Positions 1 through 16,441 of a stretch of 29,434 nt of DNA are shown piece after piece. The notes beneath the pieces were generated by a model. The model saw nothing but the letters and a program-made list of their open reading frames with translations. It made no database searches and was not told where the DNA came from. Position 1 is the first letter of the stretch, and the number at the start of each line of letters is the position of its first letter. The DNA comes from a virus: the UHGV virus genome UHGV-0114363; one strand, written 5' to 3'. The translations under genes and the position numbers were made by a program.

Positions 1-81
1 TTGCCCACCTCAATTTTAACTGATTATTGATATTGAAAACTCGTACTTTTAACTGATACAGATATTTAGGAAACCATAAAT

Positions 82-447
82 TTATTTGTCCAAGATTCTA
101 TCCATAATATTTCTTAGTTCTTGTCTGGTTGATTCTATTTTAGCAAGCAACGTTTTGATCAATGAGGGTGAAAAATCAACTGTGCGTGGATCGTTAGCTA
201 ACCACAGTTTAAGTAACCCACCAAGTCGACCAAGATCAGCATTTACTCGGCTAAGCTCTACAACCTGTTCAATATCTACAATAGACTCAACCTGATAACC
301 CATTGCTACTTTACGAATGAAGCTCGCTACACTTAAGCCAGATGCTTCTGCATTTTCCTGGATTTGCGCTTTTTCATCTGGCAAACAATAAACTTTAATT
401 GGTGTACTATTTTTTCTAGTCTGAGAAACGGTCATATCATTCTCCAT
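82..447 (-). CDS. NikA/MobC-like ribbon-helix-helix relaxosome accessory (mobilization) protein
   Basis: 121-aa ORF; segment KVYCLPDEKAQIQENAEASGLSVASFIRKVAMG...LGRLGGLLK resembles the RHH core of plasmid NikA/MobC-type oriT-binding proteins (recollection of R64 NikA pattern). A GAGGTG Shine-Dalgarno at the extreme left edge (minus sense) suggests the next gene, plausibly a relaxase, starts just off-window. Confidence 0.5.
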   Translation of the reverse strand: MENDMTVSQTRKNSTPIKVYCLPDEKAQIQENAEASGLSVASFIRKVAMGYQVESIVDIEQVVELSRVNADLGRLGGLLKLWLANDPRTVDFSPSLIKTLLAKIESTRQELRNIMDRILDK

Positions 448-515
448 ACAGGCGGTAGCCGATCAGCCTCGCAGAGCAGGACTCCGTTGAGCAGCCCAGC
501 TGCTAATAAGAGAAG

Positions 516-553
516 GTAAAGTAGAAGCACCGTTTACGGTGGGCCTACTTTAC
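516..553. repeat. Inverted repeat GTAAAGTAG / CTACTTTAC enclosing palindrome ACCGTTTACGGT; candidate oriT or operator element
   Basis: Perfect 9-bp arms at 516-524 and 545-553 with nested palindrome at 529-540; lies about 70 bp upstream of the NikA/MobC-like start codon; no flanking T-tract so not an intrinsic terminator. Confidence 0.4.
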
Positions 554-584
554 ATGTCCTGCCCTACATTTGCCGTTGTGAATC

Positions 585-623
585 TGTGTACGTATTGTGT
601 ATTCCTGTGTACTCAGTGTGTTT
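585..623. repeat. Four helically phased TGTGT(A/T) direct repeats (candidate protein-binding array)
   Basis: TGTGT cores start at 585, 596, 606 and 617 (spacing 11, 10, 11 bp) in the intergenic region between the AlpA-like and NikA/MobC-like genes. Confidence 0.4.
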
Positions 624-717
624 TCCTAAAGCATTTGTGCAGGATTAGTAGTGTAAAAATGTGCAGCATATGTGTTTATTGGAAGGGAAATTATTTGAAT
701 GACCCTAAGAAATATTT

Positions 718-1011
718 TTATTCTCGCGGCTTGGGTTTTGGCGGCCTGCCACGTTTCCTTTGAAACCTATTTATCTCTTTCGCTATATCGTCATTTTCTG
801 TCTTTGACTCAACAGATTTATCTATCCAATCCTTAACATCTTCTCTACGCCAGAGAAGACGTTTATTACCGGGAAGACGGCATCTTGGTGGAAGACATTT
901 TGGATTTCGCGTTGCATCACTGCGGATACTTTTTACAGTTTTCTTTAATGCAAAAGCCAACTCTTCAACGGTTATAAGTTCTGGCATAACTGATTTCATC
1001 GAAGAACCCAT
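718..1011 (-). CDS. AlpA-family helix-turn-helix regulator / excisionase-like protein with C-terminal AT-hook
   Basis: 97-aa ORF; LITVEELAFALKKTVKSIRS...LLWRREDVKDWI matches the AlpA/Xis-type HTH pattern; C-terminal KRGRPPKPKP is an AT-hook-like basic tail. Start could be 1011 or 999. Confidence 0.6.
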   Translation of the reverse strand: MGSSMKSVMPELITVEELAFALKKTVKSIRSDATRNPKCLPPRCRLPGNKRLLWRREDVKDWIDKSVESKTENDDIAKEINRFQRKRGRPPKPKPRE

Positions 1012-1033: not shown

Positions 1034-1061
1034 TTTAGCGGCTAAAATTTTAGCCGCTAAA
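1034..1061. promoter_or_regulatory. 28-bp perfect palindrome TTTAGCGGCTAAAATTTTAGCCGCTAAA (candidate operator)
   Basis: Arms 1034-1047 and 1048-1061 are exact reverse complements; sits 23-50 bp upstream of the AlpA-like start codon. Confidence 0.5.
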
Positions 1062-1659: not shown

Positions 1660-1974
1660 TATTTTTACTAAGGGTTATGTATATCTAAACTACAAAAACA
1701 GCAATGCAAAAGATAAACGGGTAACAATCGTAGAAAAGCTTTGTTGCTGAGGGGTTACCCTCATTGGAAACCGGCTTGAGATAAGTATCATATGAGGATA
1801 TCAAATCCGACTGGTGAGGCCAGGTTTGATAATTTGAAGCGCTGGACGTAGCGTAGATGCCACAATAGAGGAGACAATAGTAAATTAAATTATAAGATAA
1901 ATGCAGATTTTTGTTTCGCTATGAAGTTATCACTGAAGATAAAGTATTCTAAGATAGATGAATGTGAGGTTGCC

Positions 1975-2235
1975 ATGACAACGATGAAAGCTAGACCCAG
2001 TTCTGTTGCGGATATTCTTTTAAATGAGTATTTGAAACCTTTAGCTATGTCTTCACGTGACTTAGCTAATTTGATGGGAGTACCTTATAGCAGAATTGAC
2101 GATATATTACGACACTCTAAAAATATAAGTAATAGAGAGGGGGAATTACTTTCTAAAATCTTCAATACTGATAGCGATTTTTGGATAAAACTTCAAGAAA
2201 ACTATATAAATCATACATGCAAATTCCATAAATAG
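1975..2235 (+). CDS. HigA-family antitoxin-like XRE helix-turn-helix protein (solitary)
   Basis: PSSVADILLNEYLKPLAMSSRDLANLMGVPYSRIDDILRHSKNISNREGELLSKIFNTDSDFWIKLQ matches the HigA-type HTH pattern; GAGGT Shine-Dalgarno 4 nt before the ATG at 1975. No toxin-sized ORF on either side. Confidence 0.6.
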   Translation: MTTMKARPSSVADILLNEYLKPLAMSSRDLANLMGVPYSRIDDILRHSKNISNREGELLSKIFNTDSDFWIKLQENYINHTCKFHK

Positions 2236-2499: not shown

Positions 2500-4989
2500 T
2501 TAATGTTCAATATCTATTTGATTATCAATTTGAATAATGTTTTGAATCTCACTGTAAATATCAATGTTCTCATCTGGTACATCTATGCTAACCAATAAAC
2601 TATATTTAACATTGTTAATATAGCGATCCTGCGCAGTACGATATTTCCACCATCCACCAACAGGATAGACAGCGATAGTATTCATCTCTGTTAAATCTGC
2701 AGCACTGCCTTTCCAAGCATCTGAGTGTAATGAACCTCTAACTCTGAGTTGAGGCCCCAGAAACCATCCTGACGCATCTCCTTCAGGTCCATTGTATTCT
2801 TCATTATTCGCATTACGGTTTATCGAAGCACGGAAATTTTCAAGGGTCTGATTAGGTCTAATAACTGCAAATCTCAATCCATGAGATTGATACGAATATT
2901 GTCGTCTGAATCCTTTTTGACTTGGATTAGGTTCAATAAAATACGACAATGTGATTCTTAAAATAACATTTGTTTCTGGTGGTAGTAAGCGAAGAGCTTC
3001 TACGGGCCAAGGGAGTGAAAACAGATGCATTTCATTCAATGTAGGATCAGTAGAACCATCTCTTTTAAATGGGGTGATTTCCGACTGAGATATTAATGTA
3101 AGTGCATTTTCCGCACTATGCATTGCTCGATTTAAATTAGGTACTCCATAACCAACCATCCTTAATAAGCTTTCTTTAGCCGATTTTGGTGTCCCCTGTG
3201 CACGTTCTGTTCTATATCGTTCGTGCATACGACTAGTCCATCTTGCTGTATGAACAAGTAATCCCCTAATAGTTTCAGGCCAATATTCTGGGTACTGAGC
3301 CATTAGCATAGCAGCATGTTTTGATACTAGAGCACAGGCTGCGCTAGTATCTGAATTAACTTCAAACAATTGATTTGTTGCCCTGCCAGAGGTTGTGAGC
3401 AAAGATAATTCAATTGTATTTGTGATTTCATCACGGCTAGGTGATATAAGTTTGTTTCCGCCTTCCTCTACTAAATCTGGCTTATATGGGGCATGCTTTT
3501 TCCATCCCCAGGATACCGATGACCGAGATGACGGTGCAATATCTTCTGACATAGCGAAAGGAGACCAACCATCATATTCGCGGTCTGTATGGGTTGTTTT
3601 ATCAGTATACGCCCCTACAGTTAATGCATTCCAAGATTGAGCAGGATCTTCAATTTCAGCAAGAGTCACTGAATCCCAATAATCTAATTCTAAATTTGTA
3701 GGTTGAGAGTTACCCGCAGAAATTATAAATAATCTGCGGATATCATCCTCTAAACCAAAACTAAACTTGTCAATCTCTGCAGACCATGAGGACGGTTGGC
3801 CTCCAAGAGTATTAGGCTCTGCTGTCACAGCAAGCGAATAAACTCTGCGCCAGTTCGGGTTTTCCAGCTCCAGACGACTTGACGTTCCTGTAGTAATAGC
3901 TCCATAAAGATTAGGATCATTAGTAGCTCTTGGAGGTAGTATCCTTCCTGATTCGATATTGTACGGAATCGAAATGTCCTGATCGTTCAATAAAACAGAC
4001 AGGAAATCTCCATAAACACATAGTCCTGCTTGTCTGGAACCGTGGTCATTATAAGGCCTTTGATTATAATCATCGAAAAGTGGCCAAGATATGTCCCAAG
4101 CAGCTGCCAGTGATGAGTTAGTAAATCTAGATAATAGTGGATTATTGTAGTTAACACCTGTATCTAATATACAAACAGAAACATCAGCTTCATTGTTACG
4201 CGTAATTCTTGCAGCAACATTTTCTGCCCACTGATGCTGTTCTGTAGGTAAGGAATTAACTATAACTGATATATCATCCCTCGCTGATCTTATCTCTTTT
4301 AAATTAGATATTAATTCAGGACAAACTTTTAATCTCGATAGACTCGTACGGATAAGAACAACAGTAGTATCGAAAAAATTAATAGAAGTATTCCCGAGCC
4401 TTCCATTAATTCTTTCGCATAAACGCCGAGCAATATTTAGCACATCCTCCTTATTACCCTTAAGCCAAAGCTCAAACCACTTTTCAACACCGTGATCATC
4501 CGGAATAAGATCTTTTTTATCTGTCCAGAAAGAAGTTATATCTGCTAACTCGATATTTTGTATGCTATCAATTAACAAATGATTTCTAGGGAACTCGATA
4601 CCATCCTTCGATGGATTCAAATAGTCATTTATTTTTTTAGTGAATTTAGTTCTGTCATTTTCATTAATGTATATAATCGCAGTTTCACGATTATTTGATT
4701 TAACTAAAGAACAAAGCTTGAAATAAGTATTATCGATTTTATCTATAGGAAGATCGCATTGTTCAAAACTGATTAGCCTAACATAAATCCCTTTTTCATC
4801 AGTAACAGGGGGAAGCCTCGGTCTTTCATCATAATGATTCAATATACGGCTATACTGATTTAGTAATGATATACCATGTACCGCTCGATCACGAGCTGGG
4901 ACTTGGGGACTACGACCATTGCTCCTAGAGCGATAGTTTTCGGGGGAAACATAGCCGTTTAATAAAATATGCCTCTTGTTGGTAGTCAT
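2500..4989 (-). CDS. Subtilisin-like serine peptidase (S8 family), 829 aa, with extra N- and C-terminal domains
   Basis: Catalytic residues in canonical subtilase order: Asp in VCILDTGVN (about residue 276), His in YNDHGSRQ (316), oxyanion Asn in FIISAGNSQ (427), Ser in NSDTSAACALV (549); ALTVGAYT motif present. AGGGA Shine-Dalgarno overlaps the 3' end of the upstream ATPase gene (8-nt gap). Confidence 0.8.
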   Translation of the reverse strand: MTTNKRHILLNGYVSPENYRSRSNGRSPQVPARDRAVHGISLLNQYSRILNHYDERPRLPPVTDEKGIYVRLISFEQCDLPIDKIDNTYFKLCSLVKSNNRETAIIYINENDRTKFTKKINDYLNPSKDGIEFPRNHLLIDSIQNIELADITSFWTDKKDLIPDDHGVEKWFELWLKGNKEDVLNIARRLCERINGRLGNTSINFFDTTVVLIRTSLSRLKVCPELISNLKEIRSARDDISVIVNSLPTEQHQWAENVAARITRNNEADVSVCILDTGVNYNNPLLSRFTNSSLAAAWDISWPLFDDYNQRPYNDHGSRQAGLCVYGDFLSVLLNDQDISIPYNIESGRILPPRATNDPNLYGAITTGTSSRLELENPNWRRVYSLAVTAEPNTLGGQPSSWSAEIDKFSFGLEDDIRRLFIISAGNSQPTNLELDYWDSVTLAEIEDPAQSWNALTVGAYTDKTTHTDREYDGWSPFAMSEDIAPSSRSSVSWGWKKHAPYKPDLVEEGGNKLISPSRDEITNTIELSLLTTSGRATNQLFEVNSDTSAACALVSKHAAMLMAQYPEYWPETIRGLLVHTARWTSRMHERYRTERAQGTPKSAKESLLRMVGYGVPNLNRAMHSAENALTLISQSEITPFKRDGSTDPTLNEMHLFSLPWPVEALRLLPPETNVILRITLSYFIEPNPSQKGFRRQYSYQSHGLRFAVIRPNQTLENFRASINRNANNEEYNGPEGDASGWFLGPQLRVRGSLHSDAWKGSAADLTEMNTIAVYPVGGWWKYRTAQDRYINNVKYSLLVSIDVPDENIDIYSEIQNIIQIDNQIDIEH

Positions 4990-4997
4990 TTCATCCC

Positions 4998-5984
4998 TTA
5001 TTGTCTACTTTCTTGCCTACGCTTTATAGCCTTTACTAACAAATCGGTTGTAATATTGTTTGCATTATAAAGCACTGATTCTTTGGCAGCATCTTCACTT
5101 GCTCGCGTGATCTCCGCTGCACTTAGACCTGAAGCACTATCAATGATCTCACTCCAAAATAAATTACCGAGGTCAAAGACAGCGAGTCTCTGTTCAATAA
5201 GATTCCTGATTAGATTATCCTCAGGCCTTGTGAACGGTATAATATCGTCAAATCGTCTATATAAGGCGCGATCTAAAAGCTCTGGATGATTGGTTGCAGC
5301 TAAAACTATGCTCTCAGAATCATCCTGCTCTACAAACATTAAAAAAGAATTTAAGACCCTACGAATTTCTCCAACGTCATTCTGAGCGCCACGCTGAGTT
5401 CCTATAGCATCGAACTCGTCAAAAAAATATACAGCTCTTGTTTGCCGTATGTGGTCAAAAATTAAACGCAGCTTAGCTGCAGTTTCACCCATATAGCGAG
5501 TGATTAGATTATCTAAGACGACTGTATAAAGTGGTAGCTTTAACTCTGTAGCAATGACTGATGCGGACATTGTCTTACCAGTACCGGGAGGACCAGTGAA
5601 AAGAATTTTTCTTCTTGGAATAAGCCCAAACTCAGAAAGTTTATCTTTCTGTTTTTGTTCAAGCAGAACCTGATTCAATCTTTCCCTAACGCTTCCAGAA
5701 ATCACCAGATCTTGAAGATGTACTGGCTTGTTCGTTTGCTCAAGTAACCCCTTAAGATCACCATCAGGCTGCTTAACAAATGGTGTAAGTCGTTTTTCAA
5801 CTAAACCTACAGAACTCGTTGTTTTCTGATTTTTATCAACTAAGTTTTTTATATCATTAGCAAGCTTATGATGACCTTGCCTTGCTTCCTTAGCTGCCAC
5901 CTGCAAAGCAATAGAAAAGAAACGCTGATCATCACGATCAACGTGGCTTTTCAATAAAGCTTTGATCTGCTCTGCAGTAGCCAT
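4998..5984 (-). CDS. AAA+ ATPase (classical AAA clade), 328 aa
   Basis: Walker A GPPGTGKT (131-138), Walker B VYFFDEFD (about 186-192), sensor-1 LAATNHPELLD (about 229-238) and RRFD (243-246); roughly 100-aa helical N-terminal region; first gene of a two-gene operon with the S8 peptidase. Confidence 0.85.
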   Translation of the reverse strand: MATAEQIKALLKSHVDRDDQRFFSIALQVAAKEARQGHHKLANDIKNLVDKNQKTTSSVGLVEKRLTPFVKQPDGDLKGLLEQTNKPVHLQDLVISGSVRERLNQVLLEQKQKDKLSEFGLIPRRKILFTGPPGTGKTMSASVIATELKLPLYTVVLDNLITRYMGETAAKLRLIFDHIRQTRAVYFFDEFDAIGTQRGAQNDVGEIRRVLNSFLMFVEQDDSESIVLAATNHPELLDRALYRRFDDIIPFTRPEDNLIRNLIEQRLAVFDLGNLFWSEIIDSASGLSAAEITRASEDAAKESVLYNANNITTDLLVKAIKRRQESRQ

Positions 5985-6448
5985 AACCCCTCATACTCCC
6001 TTGTTCTCTTGTTGCAAAGTTTACTATAAATTCATTTAGTTCGACATCGTTACCTACCTGCTCATTACAGGAAAGTAATACCTTCATGAGCGTATCATCA
6101 ATGATCAAAGTGTAATCAAACACCTAGGCATAGTACCTTCACTACGTGAACTGTATCACTCATTGTTATGTAACCTGAGTGTCCCTTTCTGGCACTTAGC
6201 TCTATCGGATAATGTATTTAAGCTGTTAATTTATAAGATTTTTCATCACTAAACTGTCTTTCATGCAACGCATCGATAAGGTCAACACATTACGTTTATA
6301 AGGAAGTAGTTTGTTTAGCGTAATGATGCAAATGCTGACCAATTAGCTTTGCCACAATTTTGCCACACCTACAACGCGCAAAATTGCACATTAGTGTTGA
6401 ACAAAGCAAAATACTGCAATAGTAACTTGATGATTTTACGAGAAAAGA

Positions 6449-6494
6449 TGGTGCCGATAATAGGAGTCGAACCTACGACCTTCGCATTACGAAT
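6449..6494 (-). other. Partial tRNA-Thr(CGU) 3' end (46 nt): anticodon loop through CCA; att core repeat
   Basis: Minus-strand sequence ATTCGTAATGCGAAGGTCGTAGGTTCGACTCCTATTATCGGCACCA has a CGT anticodon loop, GGTTCGACTCC T-arm and terminal CCA; no D-arm or 5' acceptor half follows, so it is a 3' fragment typical of an integrase att duplication. Matches my recollection of enterobacterial thrW. Confidence 0.7.
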
Positions 6495-13815: not shown

Positions 13816-14438
13816 TGGATACCTATAGAGTTACCAAGACTGGTTCCTTTTAGTCCATCAAACCACCCTGTTGACTTAATTACCGATTCATTTACTGGGG
13901 TGGTGGATTTAGTCCCGGAATTCTGCACCGCAGATGTACTAACCCCGTCCTGCATATCGGATTTATCAGCAACGGTGACATTTTTTGTATGCGTTATGAT
14001 GACTTCACGCAGGGTAAGCGTGCAGTTCAGCACGTTCTCGCTGGTTTTATCGGTCGTCACTTCTATGGCGCGCACCAGCATATTGGTGTACACCCTCTTT
14101 CCGGTCACCACATCGAACGGCACGCGCTCAAGCTGCATATCCAGCAGCTTTTGGTATGTCTCCTTAGGGCTAAGCCCAGCGCTAAGACCGATTGAAGATG
14201 TATCAATGAAGTCCAGCAACGAACCGCCACCAGCGAAGCCGCATTCCATTGTGACTTCGCTGGGGCGCTTATACGCATGATCGGCGATGAAGCCCGAAGC
14301 GCTATTCGTTGTTGGCTTCTCCACCGGGTGCTCAGTAATTTCGAGCGCATCAGAATGCTTTTCGGAGACGACCACGCTGGGAATTAATATGCCAACTCGC
14401 CGGGATTGCTGGCGAAAAATAGCGGAGAGAATATCCAT
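13812..14438 (-). CDS. Tail protein following the tape measure (208 aa)
   Basis: Start overlaps the tape measure stop; conserved synteny. Confidence 0.45.
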   Translation of the reverse strand: MDILSAIFRQQSRRVGILIPSVVVSEKHSDALEITEHPVEKPTTNSASGFIADHAYKRPSEVTMECGFAGGGSLLDFIDTSSIGLSAGLSPKETYQKLLDMQLERVPFDVVTGKRVYTNMLVRAIEVTTDKTSENVLNCTLTLREVIITHTKNVTVADKSDMQDGVSTSAVQNSGTKSTTPVNESVIKSTGWFDGLKGTSLGNSIGIQ

Positions 14439-16441
14439 TAGCTCGGCACCGTTCGAAGTTGTTGAGTTAGTTGTGAATTAACGTTCTTCTGCCGCTCAAC
14501 TGTGATATTGGCAGCCTCACGTGGATCAGATACACCGTGAATATTAATAACCGTTTCTTGCTGTATGTTTTGTGAAGCACCGCCACCAGCGGCCATACGA
14601 ACCAATTCACTTGGGTAAGGGTTTCTCCCGTTCTCATGATGGATAATTCCATTCATCAGAGAGGACATTACCTGCGGATCTTTAAGGTTGAGAATGGCAT
14701 CAGGAGCCACACCCATCATTTTCGATAACTGAGCAATGTAAGCACCGGTATTATTTTCATTCCCCGGTGCCCACGTAGAGATTATATCGTTAAGGGTTTG
14801 CAGCGGCTTGCCTGTCGTCTTACCTTCAAAGTAGCGCATTAATTGTCGGGAAAGCGCTTTCAGGCCATCATAGGCAGTTTCAAACCGGGCGAACCTGCCG
14901 CCAGGCCTTTCGAGCGTCGCCCCAGATTGCCCACGAAAGTCGATATTACCGGGGTTATTATTTCTAATACCTCGTGGAGCTTTAGCAGACTGGGCATGTT
15001 GGTCAGGCTCATCATCACCGAACCAGCCGCGCACCGTTCGGCCCACGCTGCGAGGATCGAATCCCCAGTGCTCTTTAATCCAGTCGGCGGTACCGTTGGC
15101 GCTATCTGTTACCATCGGCATCGCTGACGGATTTTCGCTGCCCTGATTTAGCAGCTGTTTGCCTATACTAGCGGCCTGCGCCCAGTTGCCATCTTTTATG
15201 GCATTCAGCAAATCAGCGATCATGTTCAGCATCTTGCCGAACTCACCCATTTGCGAAATGAAGTTGCTAAAATCCCACTTTAGGGACCATGACTTGGGGT
15301 CAATACCGAGCAACTTAGCCAGCGCTTTTGTCAGGTCCGTAACAGTCTTTTTCAGGTCACCAATCATTTTGACGGCCTGATCAATTTCAGTCTTCCATTT
15401 CCCCCAGTCAATCAGGCTTTTGCCACCTTCTTTCCACGTCTGGTAATCATCCAAGAGCAGACCAAGTGCAATAATAAGCGTCGTTATCATGCCCAAGGGT
15501 GATGACATGAAAGCGGTATTTAGCAGCCGCCATGCAACCAACAGCCCACTGAACAATGCGATAAGCTGCTGCGTGGCTGGGTTCAGCTTTTTGAACCAGG
15601 CGATCACACCCTCAACAGCTTGCCCAGTTCGCCATAACACGCGGGTAATCGCGTCACCTGCCCAGAGAATTCCTTTGATGATCTTCGTGATGACCGCTTC
15701 AATCTTCGGCCAGTTGTCGAGTATCTGCCTGCGGAAGTTATCAATACTGCCAGCAAGGCCACCAGCTAGGTTAGAGCCAATCTTGTCTTTCGCCTGTCCA
15801 AGCGTCATCGTCAGATTACGCATGGAGGTCATGAAAATATTGGACTGTTTAGCCGCTGACTCAGCATTAAAACCAATACGCTTTGCCGTCAACGCGTACT
15901 CAGAACTGAGCTGCCCCATCCCTCTGCGCATCGCCATCAGCGTGTTTTCATCGATGCCGAGCATCTGCGCGTATTGTTTCGCGCGGTAATACGGCATGTT
16001 GTTGAGCTTTTGCCCAACGCCAGTAAAGATGGCCGCAGTATCACGCATCTTTCCGCTGGCATCGCGAGTCTGGACGCCCAGGCGGTTCAGGAAGCCTTCC
16101 GCGCCCGGATTGCTACGCATGAAACCGGCCAGCCCTTCAAGAGAGGACATGGCCGACTCGGCGCTGGCACCGGTTTGCGATGCGGCATAGCCCAGCGCTT
16201 TGATGCCCTGGACGCTGGCCCCCGTCCGCTGGGATGCCCAGTAAATTTTATCCAGACCATTCGCGATCTGGGTGGTAAATCCGACAATGCTAAGCGCTGA
16301 GCCTTTCACCACCGCGCCGACCTTCAGAACGTTAGCTGTAACGCCTTTCAGCACGGCTTCAAACTTATTAGCGCCAGCCTGATCGATATCGAATCCCAGC
16401 GAAACAAGGAAATCTTTAATCGTATCTGCGTTACCGCTCAT
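14438..16441 (-). CDS. Tail tape measure protein with C-terminal peptidoglycan hydrolase-like region
   Basis: 667 aa, Ala/Gly/Met-rich helical N-terminal part, central hydrophobic segment, C-terminal RGIRNNNPGNIDFRG...GIIHHENGRNPY region; located after the chaperone frameshift region. Confidence 0.8.
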   Translation of the reverse strand: MSGNADTIKDFLVSLGFDIDQAGANKFEAVLKGVTANVLKVGAVVKGSALSIVGFTTQIANGLDKIYWASQRTGASVQGIKALGYAASQTGASAESAMSSLEGLAGFMRSNPGAEGFLNRLGVQTRDASGKMRDTAAIFTGVGQKLNNMPYYRAKQYAQMLGIDENTLMAMRRGMGQLSSEYALTAKRIGFNAESAAKQSNIFMTSMRNLTMTLGQAKDKIGSNLAGGLAGSIDNFRRQILDNWPKIEAVITKIIKGILWAGDAITRVLWRTGQAVEGVIAWFKKLNPATQQLIALFSGLLVAWRLLNTAFMSSPLGMITTLIIALGLLLDDYQTWKEGGKSLIDWGKWKTEIDQAVKMIGDLKKTVTDLTKALAKLLGIDPKSWSLKWDFSNFISQMGEFGKMLNMIADLLNAIKDGNWAQAASIGKQLLNQGSENPSAMPMVTDSANGTADWIKEHWGFDPRSVGRTVRGWFGDDEPDQHAQSAKAPRGIRNNNPGNIDFRGQSGATLERPGGRFARFETAYDGLKALSRQLMRYFEGKTTGKPLQTLNDIISTWAPGNENNTGAYIAQLSKMMGVAPDAILNLKDPQVMSSLMNGIIHHENGRNPYPSELVRMAAGGGASQNIQQETVINIHGVSDPREAANITVERQKNVNSQLTQQLRTVPS

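Follow-up and report, generated by a model that had tools for sequence, protein, structure and literature searches.

Positions 448-579 of a 29,434-nucleotide stretch of the virus genome UHGV-0114363 (the whole stretch is referred to as the window) probably constitute an origin of transfer (oriT) of the IncP-1 type (RP4-type, MOBP), located on a small integrative mobilizable element, the island, at the tRNA gene thrW. The assignment of the region to the RP4-type oriTs was strongly supported by homology, by a curated model and by covariation. The Rfam covariance model traJ-II (RF01760) matched positions 465-564 on the minus strand over its full length (model positions 1-104 of 104), with 87.3 bits against a gathering threshold of 40 (E-value, 7e-17 to 1e-17). 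Although the Rfam name implies a cis-regulatory RNA (Weinberg et al. 2010, PMC2864571), the instance of this motif in RK2/RP4 is the described oriT, a DNA element (PMC6206304). A first-pass annotation made from the letters alone had proposed an oriT at 448-717, upstream of a relaxosome accessory gene, and this proposal was borne out by the traJ-II match, the alignment with RP4 and R751, compensatory changes in the repeat and the equivalog match of the accessory protein to TraJ.

The oriT was aligned using MAFFT with those of RP4 (sequence taken from CP152305), R751, pDS1, pJJ1886_4, pMCR_WCHEC1622, and pCFSA664-2. Between the traJ start and ...ACATGTCCTGCCC, at approximately position 579, a span covering the repeat and the nick region, the alignment was unambiguous; RP4 reads ...CACCTATCCTGCCC at the columns of ACATGTCCTGCCC. 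Base-by-base comparison with RP4 and R751, proposed earlier as a check of the repeat against known nic regions, placed the repeat beside the nick site, with the window reading ACATGTCCTG/CCC and RP4 reading ACCTATCCTG/CCC (also read as CTTCACCTATCCTG/CCCGGC). The RP4 oligonucleotide cleaved in PMC3772185 contains the RP4 nick sequence at the aligned columns. We infer a nick between G561 and C562 of the plus strand, 8 nt past the repeat (554-561), a site overlooked in the first pass; the plus strand is predicted to be the transferred strand, departing rightwards. An initial guess of AATCCTG/C on the minus strand (640-647) was dropped because the RP4/R751 alignment puts nic at 561/562 on the plus strand. 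MOBP relaxases require the core ATCCTG (consensus, YATCCTGY; PMC3772185). An NTCCTG core followed by C was present at the window nick region, whereas the strict ATCCTG core was absent, position 556 being G in TGTCCTGC and giving GTCCTG. The same G variant was found in pDS1, pJJ1886_4, and pCFSA664-2. Among the thrW islands, this position (nick -6) was polymorphic, with G in most copies and A (ATCCTG) in locus L003 (the Z0117EC0040 island), which carried no compensating change at position 482.

The perfect 9-bp inverted repeat seen in the first pass (GTAAAGTAG at 516-524 against CTACTTTAC at 545-553) was indeed perfectly complementary, and it formed the outer part of a larger repeat with 18-nt arms (516-533/536-553; 83% complementary) and a 2-nt gap. 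The palindrome thought to lie within it, ACCGTTTACGGT (529-540), was not a strict palindrome and consisted only of a 5-bp inverted repeat about TT. Folding as single-stranded DNA yielded -11.2 kcal/mol for 505-575 (z, -3.0 versus shuffles) and -21.2 kcal/mol for 462-570 (z, -3.9), a value matched by none of 200 shuffles. RP4 TraJ binds a 19-bp repeat located 8 bp from nic (PMC7314908). Across seven IncP oriTs, 6 of the 18 pairs in the repeat showed compensatory changes; the observed covariation score was attained in 0 of 500 shuffles and collapsed in shifted registers. A metagenome scan with a 16-mer returned many chance matches in coding sequence, and 41 distinct oriT-like sequences were kept. 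Nick -6 (base 556) was complementary to its partner at 482 in 37 of these, metagenomic sequences included, and the G/C pair at 556/482 appeared in several differing repeat backgrounds. Conservation was assessed across 12 variants of the island, which came from eight genera and two integration sites. The nick block and the proximal arm were invariant in all 12 (conservation, 0.99), whereas the distal arm and flanks varied (0.77-0.91 elsewhere; flanks, approximately 77%). The N-terminal strand of TraJ also tracked the arm type, PIKVYC accompanying GGTGGGCCTAC and H[IL]RVPV accompanying GGTTAGCTAAC, as would be expected for an arm bound by TraJ.

The longest open reading frame (ORF) of the adjoining traJ gene encodes 121 amino acids, whereas homologues, the alignment with plasmid TraJ proteins, and RefSeq annotation favor an ATG at position 435 and a product of 117 amino acids. 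The protein scored 163 bits (cut-off, 134) against the NCBIfam equivalog of IncP TraJ, NF010451, with identities of 74% to TraJ of pCFSA664-2, 50% to that of RP4, 45-50% to RP4/R751, and 64-74% to the enterobacterial IncP-1-like group. As in the NikA/NikB oriT of R64, a MOBP system with a ribbon-helix-helix protein at the nic-side repeat, the product matches Pfam NikA-like; unlike in R64, the top curated model for the window gene is IncP TraJ and not NikA. The oriTs of RP4/RK2 and R751 (MOBP11; TraJ-TraI-TraH-TraK) share with the window traJ, a conserved leader block, an imperfect repeat, an 8-nt interval, the nick and the three-helix traJ-II motif. They differ in that the island lacks traI, traH, and traK in cis and carries GTCCTG in place of ATCCTG. 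Table 1 gives the features of the region and its surroundings.

Table 1. Coordinates of the predicted transfer origin and neighboring features in the window
Feature	Position	Strand	Remarks
traJ-trbJ spacer with trbJ Shine-Dalgarno GAGGTG (6-11)	1..81	-	trbJ start codon abuts position 1
traJ, ribbon-helix-helix oriT-recognition protein	82..447	-	Pfam NikA-like, 4.7e-24; NF010451
oriT core	465..564	-	Full-length Rfam traJ-II (RF01760), three helices
Upstream complement GAGCAGGAC of nick core	474..482		Pairs with 556-564; outer helix of traJ-II motif
Small hairpin GCAGCCCAGCTGC	491..503		Third motif helix; Rfam alignment and folds
18-nt imperfect inverted repeat	516..553		Nick-proximal arm 536-553, predicted TraJ site
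Nick region ACATGTCCTG/CCCT (predicted nick at slash)	554..565	+	Alignment to RP4 and R751
Last block common with plasmid oriTs (..TTGCCGTTGT)	566..579	+	Plasmid homology stops at about 579
Phased array, four GTGTA/TGTGT units (GTGTA at 586, 597, 607, 618)	584..625	+	Spans nick+24 to nick+60; confined to the island family
orf97, AlpA/excisionase-like DNA-binding protein	718..1011	-	Co-directional with traJ
Two perfect IncP-1 KorB operators, TTTAGCGGCTAAA and TTTAGCCGCTAAA	1034..1046, 1049..1061		23-50 bp upstream of orf97
Right island end, 46-nt copy of the 3' part of tRNA-Thr (thrW)	6449..6494		Attachment (att) repeat

Several E. coli chromosomes matched bases 1-1300 of the window with 100% identity, and the genes to the left of the window were read from such identical or from related genomes. 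Leftward from traJ, the order was trbJ, a 57-amino-acid lipoprotein-like ORF, trbL, a variable slot, and a 357-amino-acid tyrosine integrase (Pfam, 1.5e-26) at the att end. Both TrbJ (equivalog, 382 bits) and TrbL_P (271 bits) were above their cut-offs. The same 46-nt att repeat was found at the integrase end in the thrW copies L002, L003, and L014, and no intact tRNA was present in the window. A replicase gene (repA) was neither annotated nor detected in these three copies. No relaxase signal was obtained from Pfam, NCBIfam, PHROG, or the PDB for any ORF of the E. coli and Enterobacter copies. The first-pass annotation had held that an oriT would fall if no relaxase lay adjacent, which was too strict, since relaxase-less mobilizable islands use the relaxase of their helper. 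Near-identical islands (TraJ, 99%) occurred in E. coli and two Enterobacter species, including an intact copy of approximately 11 kb beside proA in Enterobacter quasiroggenkampii (TraJ, 99% identical), and relatives at 82-93% were found in Citrobacter, Phytobacter, Erwinia, Dickeya, and Shigella, at two att sites and with different integrases. Such a distribution requires horizontal transfer.

The type IV secretion system genes of the island were limited to three: trbJ, the 57-amino-acid ORF at the trbK (entry exclusion) position, and trbL (L002, 17624-20000; L014, 6448-8824). By analogy with SGI1 and its helper IncC, these three genes may remodel the pilus or exclusion system of the helper.

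A distant BLAST search of positions 440-720 against plasmids matched only 441-579, and the match always fell in the traJ-traK spacer of IncP-1-like conjugative plasmids. Identity over 441-579 was 92% with pCFSA664-2 and 89% with mcr-1 plasmids such as pMCR_WCHEC1622; over the 68-nt core, it was 93% and 88% with pCFSA664-2 and pMCR_WCHEC1622, respectively. Against pCFSA664-2, the repeat was identical at 38 of 38 positions and the nick block at 11 of 12, for a combined repeat and nick core of 49/50. This core was present in 53 plasmids, every one typed conjugative, and the closest were eight pCFSA664-2-like replicons of approximately 41.5 kb from E. coli, Salmonella, Shigella, and E. fergusonii. 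The TrbJ of the island was 94% identical to TrbJ of enterobacterial IncP-1-like plasmids. Enterobacterial plasmids of approximately 41-60 kb of the pCFSA664-2/mcr-1 IncP type, whose repeat and nick core are identical to those of the island or nearly so, are the most likely helpers; unlike the island, pCFSA664-2, pMCR_WCHEC1622, pJJ1886_4, and pDS1 carry traI and traK.

By homology with these systems, on which every step of the following scheme relies, the island TraJ would bind the nick-proximal arm (536-553), and a co-resident IncP-1-like conjugative plasmid would supply TraI in trans to cut the plus strand after GTCCTG (G561/C562). The coupling protein and the Trb pilus system of the plasmid would then export the strand 5' to 3', rightwards from 562, with the inverted repeat entering last and marking termination. 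The GTGTA array at 584-625 would act as an island-specific module in place of the plasmid segment containing the traJ promoter and the TrbA operator.

No plasmid similarity was detected by BLAST past position 579. Beyond nick+18, RP4 has traJp/traKp, TrbA sites, and a curved TraK region, where the island instead has the GTGTA array and an excisionase-like gene; neither a divergent traK operon nor a curved TraK region of approximately 200 bp was found on the leading side at the island. The first-pass annotation had described four TGTGT copies at helical spacing in 585-623, and both the copies (585-589, 596-600, 606-610, and 617-621) and their phasing (spacing of 11, 10, and 11 nt) held, although the last copy ends at 621 and not at 623. 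The copies sit inside a 21-bp tandem duplication (584-604/605-625). Since the bare cluster count was a weak test (10 of 300 shuffles reached four TGTGT in 40 bp, mostly as overlapping runs), it was replaced by a phased test, in which none of 1,000 dinucleotide shuffles of the window yielded even three TGTGT at gaps of 5-6 nt. In the 12 island variants, the motif positions were more often invariant (18/20) than the spacers (11/22; Fisher p, 0.007). Among the 142 fetched loci, phased GTGTA pairs occurred only in island-type loci (15 loci fetched for the islands and 2 metagenomic loci with the same oriT) and only at this place. The array most likely represents phased sites for a DNA-bending protein or for a regulator of the traJ-trbJKL operon, while its role as accessory-protein binding sites, as read from the letters in the first pass, is unproven.

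An explanation that may well hold for the array, although we would not count on it, is that it serves as the promoter/operator of the traJ-trbJKL operon outside the relaxosome, with an island, helper, or host transcription factor switching these genes. In RP4, the traJ transcript starts at nic+24, with the -10/-35 boxes and a TrbA site just beyond (PMC7314908), so that the array (nick+24 to nick+60) occupies the exact place of the RP4 traJ promoter/TrbA site; it also supplants the block ACGCCAAGGAAAGTCTACAC, which was conserved in all six of the IncP-1 plasmids compared, and its pattern of conserved motifs and variable spacers resembles a footprint. The TrbA operator sequence was looked for in PMC13584720 and not found there. 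Against this explanation, a search of the minus strand between 400 and 1950, a range that includes any traJ promoter within 448-717, gave no sigma-70-like promoter, and the two island types (at thrW and at guaA) share no candidate regulator except TraJ, TrbJKL, and a HigA-like gene product. The guaA-type islands lack orf97, yet they keep the array. A promoter/operator would also fit a dual role, as TraK of RP4 has two functions, building the relaxosome and repressing traJp.

TraK of the helper is the leading candidate for an array-binding protein, with roles in relaxosome architecture and repression, and a traJ-operon operator is the other live reading. The region bound by TraK in RP4 is curved and lies downstream of the traK start (PMC7314908). 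In the plasmid loci L008 (approximately 6285-6335), L009, L005, and L004, four phased AATACAC(A) units end approximately 16 bp ahead of the start codon of traK. RP4 and R751 lack these units, which are possibly a clade-specific TraK site. AATACAC is the reverse complement of the island motif, and local alignment of the reversed island array with the plasmid array proximal to traK scored 30, compared with a null of 17.9 +/- 2.7 and a null maximum of 29-30. The likeness is borderline, a lead rather than proof of homology.

The two KorB operators upstream of orf97 conform to TTTAGCSGCTAAA (operator core given in PMC11790492), with 2 observed against 0.03 expected; the same pattern occurred 9 times in R751. 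KorB operators were found in all island and plasmid loci L001-L022, fetched before the metagenome scan, and at least one in every island locus fetched, including the guaA islands L012 (14395-14407) and L013 (14317-14329). The two operators in the window overlap a possible -10 box (TAAAAT) on the minus strand. The product of orf97 matched phrog_6355 (1.9e-31), phrog_66, 'excisionase and transcriptional regulator' (1.8e-6), and, weakly, Pfam HTH_17; its homologues carry the names AlpA or DNA-binding protein, and it is faintly similar to the AlpA of guaA-type islands. It showed no similarity to TraK, and the idea of an island-encoded TraK was dropped because the two are unrelated.

Considered together, the GTGTA (TACAC) sites and the KorB operators could represent a rewired leading half of the oriT, in which a compact, inverted array of four phased GTGTA sites 24 nt from the nick would stand in for the traJ promoter, TrbA operator, and distant TraK region of the plasmids and, with the paired KorB operators, would make relaxosome assembly and orf97-traJ-trbJKL expression depend directly on TraK and KorB of the helper. 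The GTGTA (TACAC) sites resemble the four phased AATACAC units in the TraK-binding zone of the matching helper plasmids. We regard this proposal as speculative and rather unlikely to hold in full. If true, dependence on TraK and KorB would answer how PIMEs, a recently described family of related islands, sense their helpers, which their describing preprint lists as open, with no mention of KorB (bioRxiv 10.64898/2026.01.12.698999). Through the KorB sites, the excised island might also gain the use of the helper's partition system, as SGI1 hijacks the parS of its helper (PMC10954446). Similar to our island, SGI1 is a relaxosome-dependent hitchhiker of IncC plasmids with few helper-type secretion genes and with regulator and partition sites of the helper. 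Unlike the island, SGI1 encodes an atypical relaxase of its own, and its oriT is unrelated (PMC6414798); the two elements show no sequence relation.

Several observations weigh against a functional IncP-1 oriT on the island. The nick core is GTCCTG, whereas RP4 TraI needs ATCCTG in vitro (PMC3772185); the island has neither traK nor the TraK-binding region of the plasmids, and in some genomes it is disrupted by IS1. With the helpers pB10 and pKJK5, the cloned oriT and traJ of PIME1EcRHB23-C07, which has no relaxase, were mobilized only at a low level (bioRxiv 10.64898/2026.01.12.698999); this is the closest relative tested experimentally, its sequence equality with the guaA-type islands L012/L013 being unconfirmed. 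The motif also folds better as a traJ leader RNA (-48.7 kcal/mol; z, -5.4), and part of the conservation could therefore lie at the RNA level. An inactive relic of an IncP-1 Tra1 region, kept only as a cis-regulatory traJ leader RNA on an island that no longer conjugates, would accommodate the poor mobilization of the PIME oriT by these two helpers, the decay of the island by insertion sequences, the Rfam classification, and one outer-stem pair that is G-U on the traJ-sense strand and C-A on the plus strand. Such a relic seems improbable, as it does not agree with the horizontal transfer required by the distribution of the islands and their different integrases, with the nick block and proximal arm being the most conserved columns, or with a core identical to that of plasmids typed conjugative.

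Two further explanations carried far less weight. The reading of the four repeats as iterons of an island replication origin recalls the PIME preprint, in which oriV has four direct repeats downstream of repA (bioRxiv 10.64898/2026.01.12.698999), and is very hard to sustain: the guaA islands have a separate set of four GACAGAACATGCG repeats and a DnaA box beside repA while their GTGTA array stays beside nic, which excluded the array as oriV iterons, and the thrW island has no repA. A self-sufficient module with its own MOB relaxase directly left of the window, which the first pass had expected from a Shine-Dalgarno sequence at the left edge, can practically be dismissed, for although the Shine-Dalgarno (minus strand) and a gene start directly left of the window are real, the gene is trbJ, and every identical or related genome inspected continued through the 57-amino-acid ORF, trbL, and variable ORFs to the integrase with no relaxase signal.

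The predicted IncP-1 oriT and its island belong to a kind of element that is already known, from IncP oriTs and from PIME-type islands described in 2026. PIMEs are guaA-adjacent islands with int, alpA, repA, traJ, trbJ, trbL, an IncP-like oriT, and defense cargo; IncP plasmids induce their excision, and one member with its own traI was mobilized (bioRxiv 10.64898/2026.01.12.698999). The thrW island resembles them in being chromosomal and in carrying int, an alpA-like gene, traJ, trbJ, trbK, trbL, an IncP-like oriT, and defense cargo, and some PIME members also have no relaxase. The E. coli guaA islands L012/L013 have the PIME gene content and share the oriT, the array, and a KorB operator with the thrW island. 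We have filed the thrW island as a relative or reduced variant of the PIME family and not as a strict member, because its 357-amino-acid integrase, its orientation (opposite), and its site (thrW, not guaA) differ and because repA (present in the guaA copies) and luxR are missing; its size is approximately 11 kb. The PIME search of the preprint demands a replicase and would overlook the thrW island. Novelty is thus limited to the repA-less thrW member, the helper prediction, and two regulatory leads.

Other observations concern the surroundings of the oriT. An 11-bp direct repeat, TTTTAACTGAT, lies at 14-24 and 47-57 in the traJ-trbJ spacer, where IncP-1 plasmids have the KorB operator OB4 after traJ. 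Three tandem 22-bp repeats (CGTACCTCAnATGTCATnnAnn, 1312-1377), AT-rich DNA, and a perfect DnaA box (TGTGGATAA, 1422-1430) give 1312-1430 the layout of an origin or of regulator sites, despite the lack of a rep gene on the island; the motif TACCTCAnnTGTCA also adjoins the KorB operator in the guaA islands (L012, approximately 14437-14475; L013, approximately 14387). A HigA-like helix-turn-helix gene (1921-2235, plus strand) has no visible toxin partner. A HigA-like gene also comes after trbL in the guaA islands and is the only regulator-like gene besides traJ common to both types. On the att side, the cargo (2500-5984, minus strand) consists of a pair encoding an AAA ATPase (328 amino acids) and an S8 subtilase (829 amino acids), and other island copies have ABC-three-component genes or tet(B) in the same slot, which looks like a variable defense-type hotspot. 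A myovirus-like prophage, integrated in tandem at the thrW site, fills the remainder of the window (6495-29434), with genes for tail fiber assembly, baseplate J, a DUF3383 sheath-like protein, the major capsid protein, and the portal.

About 4-6% of complete E. coli genomes contain the island. The exact repeat/nick match with pCFSA664-2-type plasmids provides a concrete helper prediction for an oriT whose close relative was hardly moved by both standard IncP-1 helpers tried so far, and the KorB operators and the phased array are specific candidates for the detection of a helper. The match to the Rfam 'traJ-II RNA' family can also be used as a detector of IncP-type oriTs. As judged from its sequence, the region would mark a small island carrying defense genes as mobilizable by IncP-1-like plasmids, which in Enterobacteriaceae also carry mcr-1.

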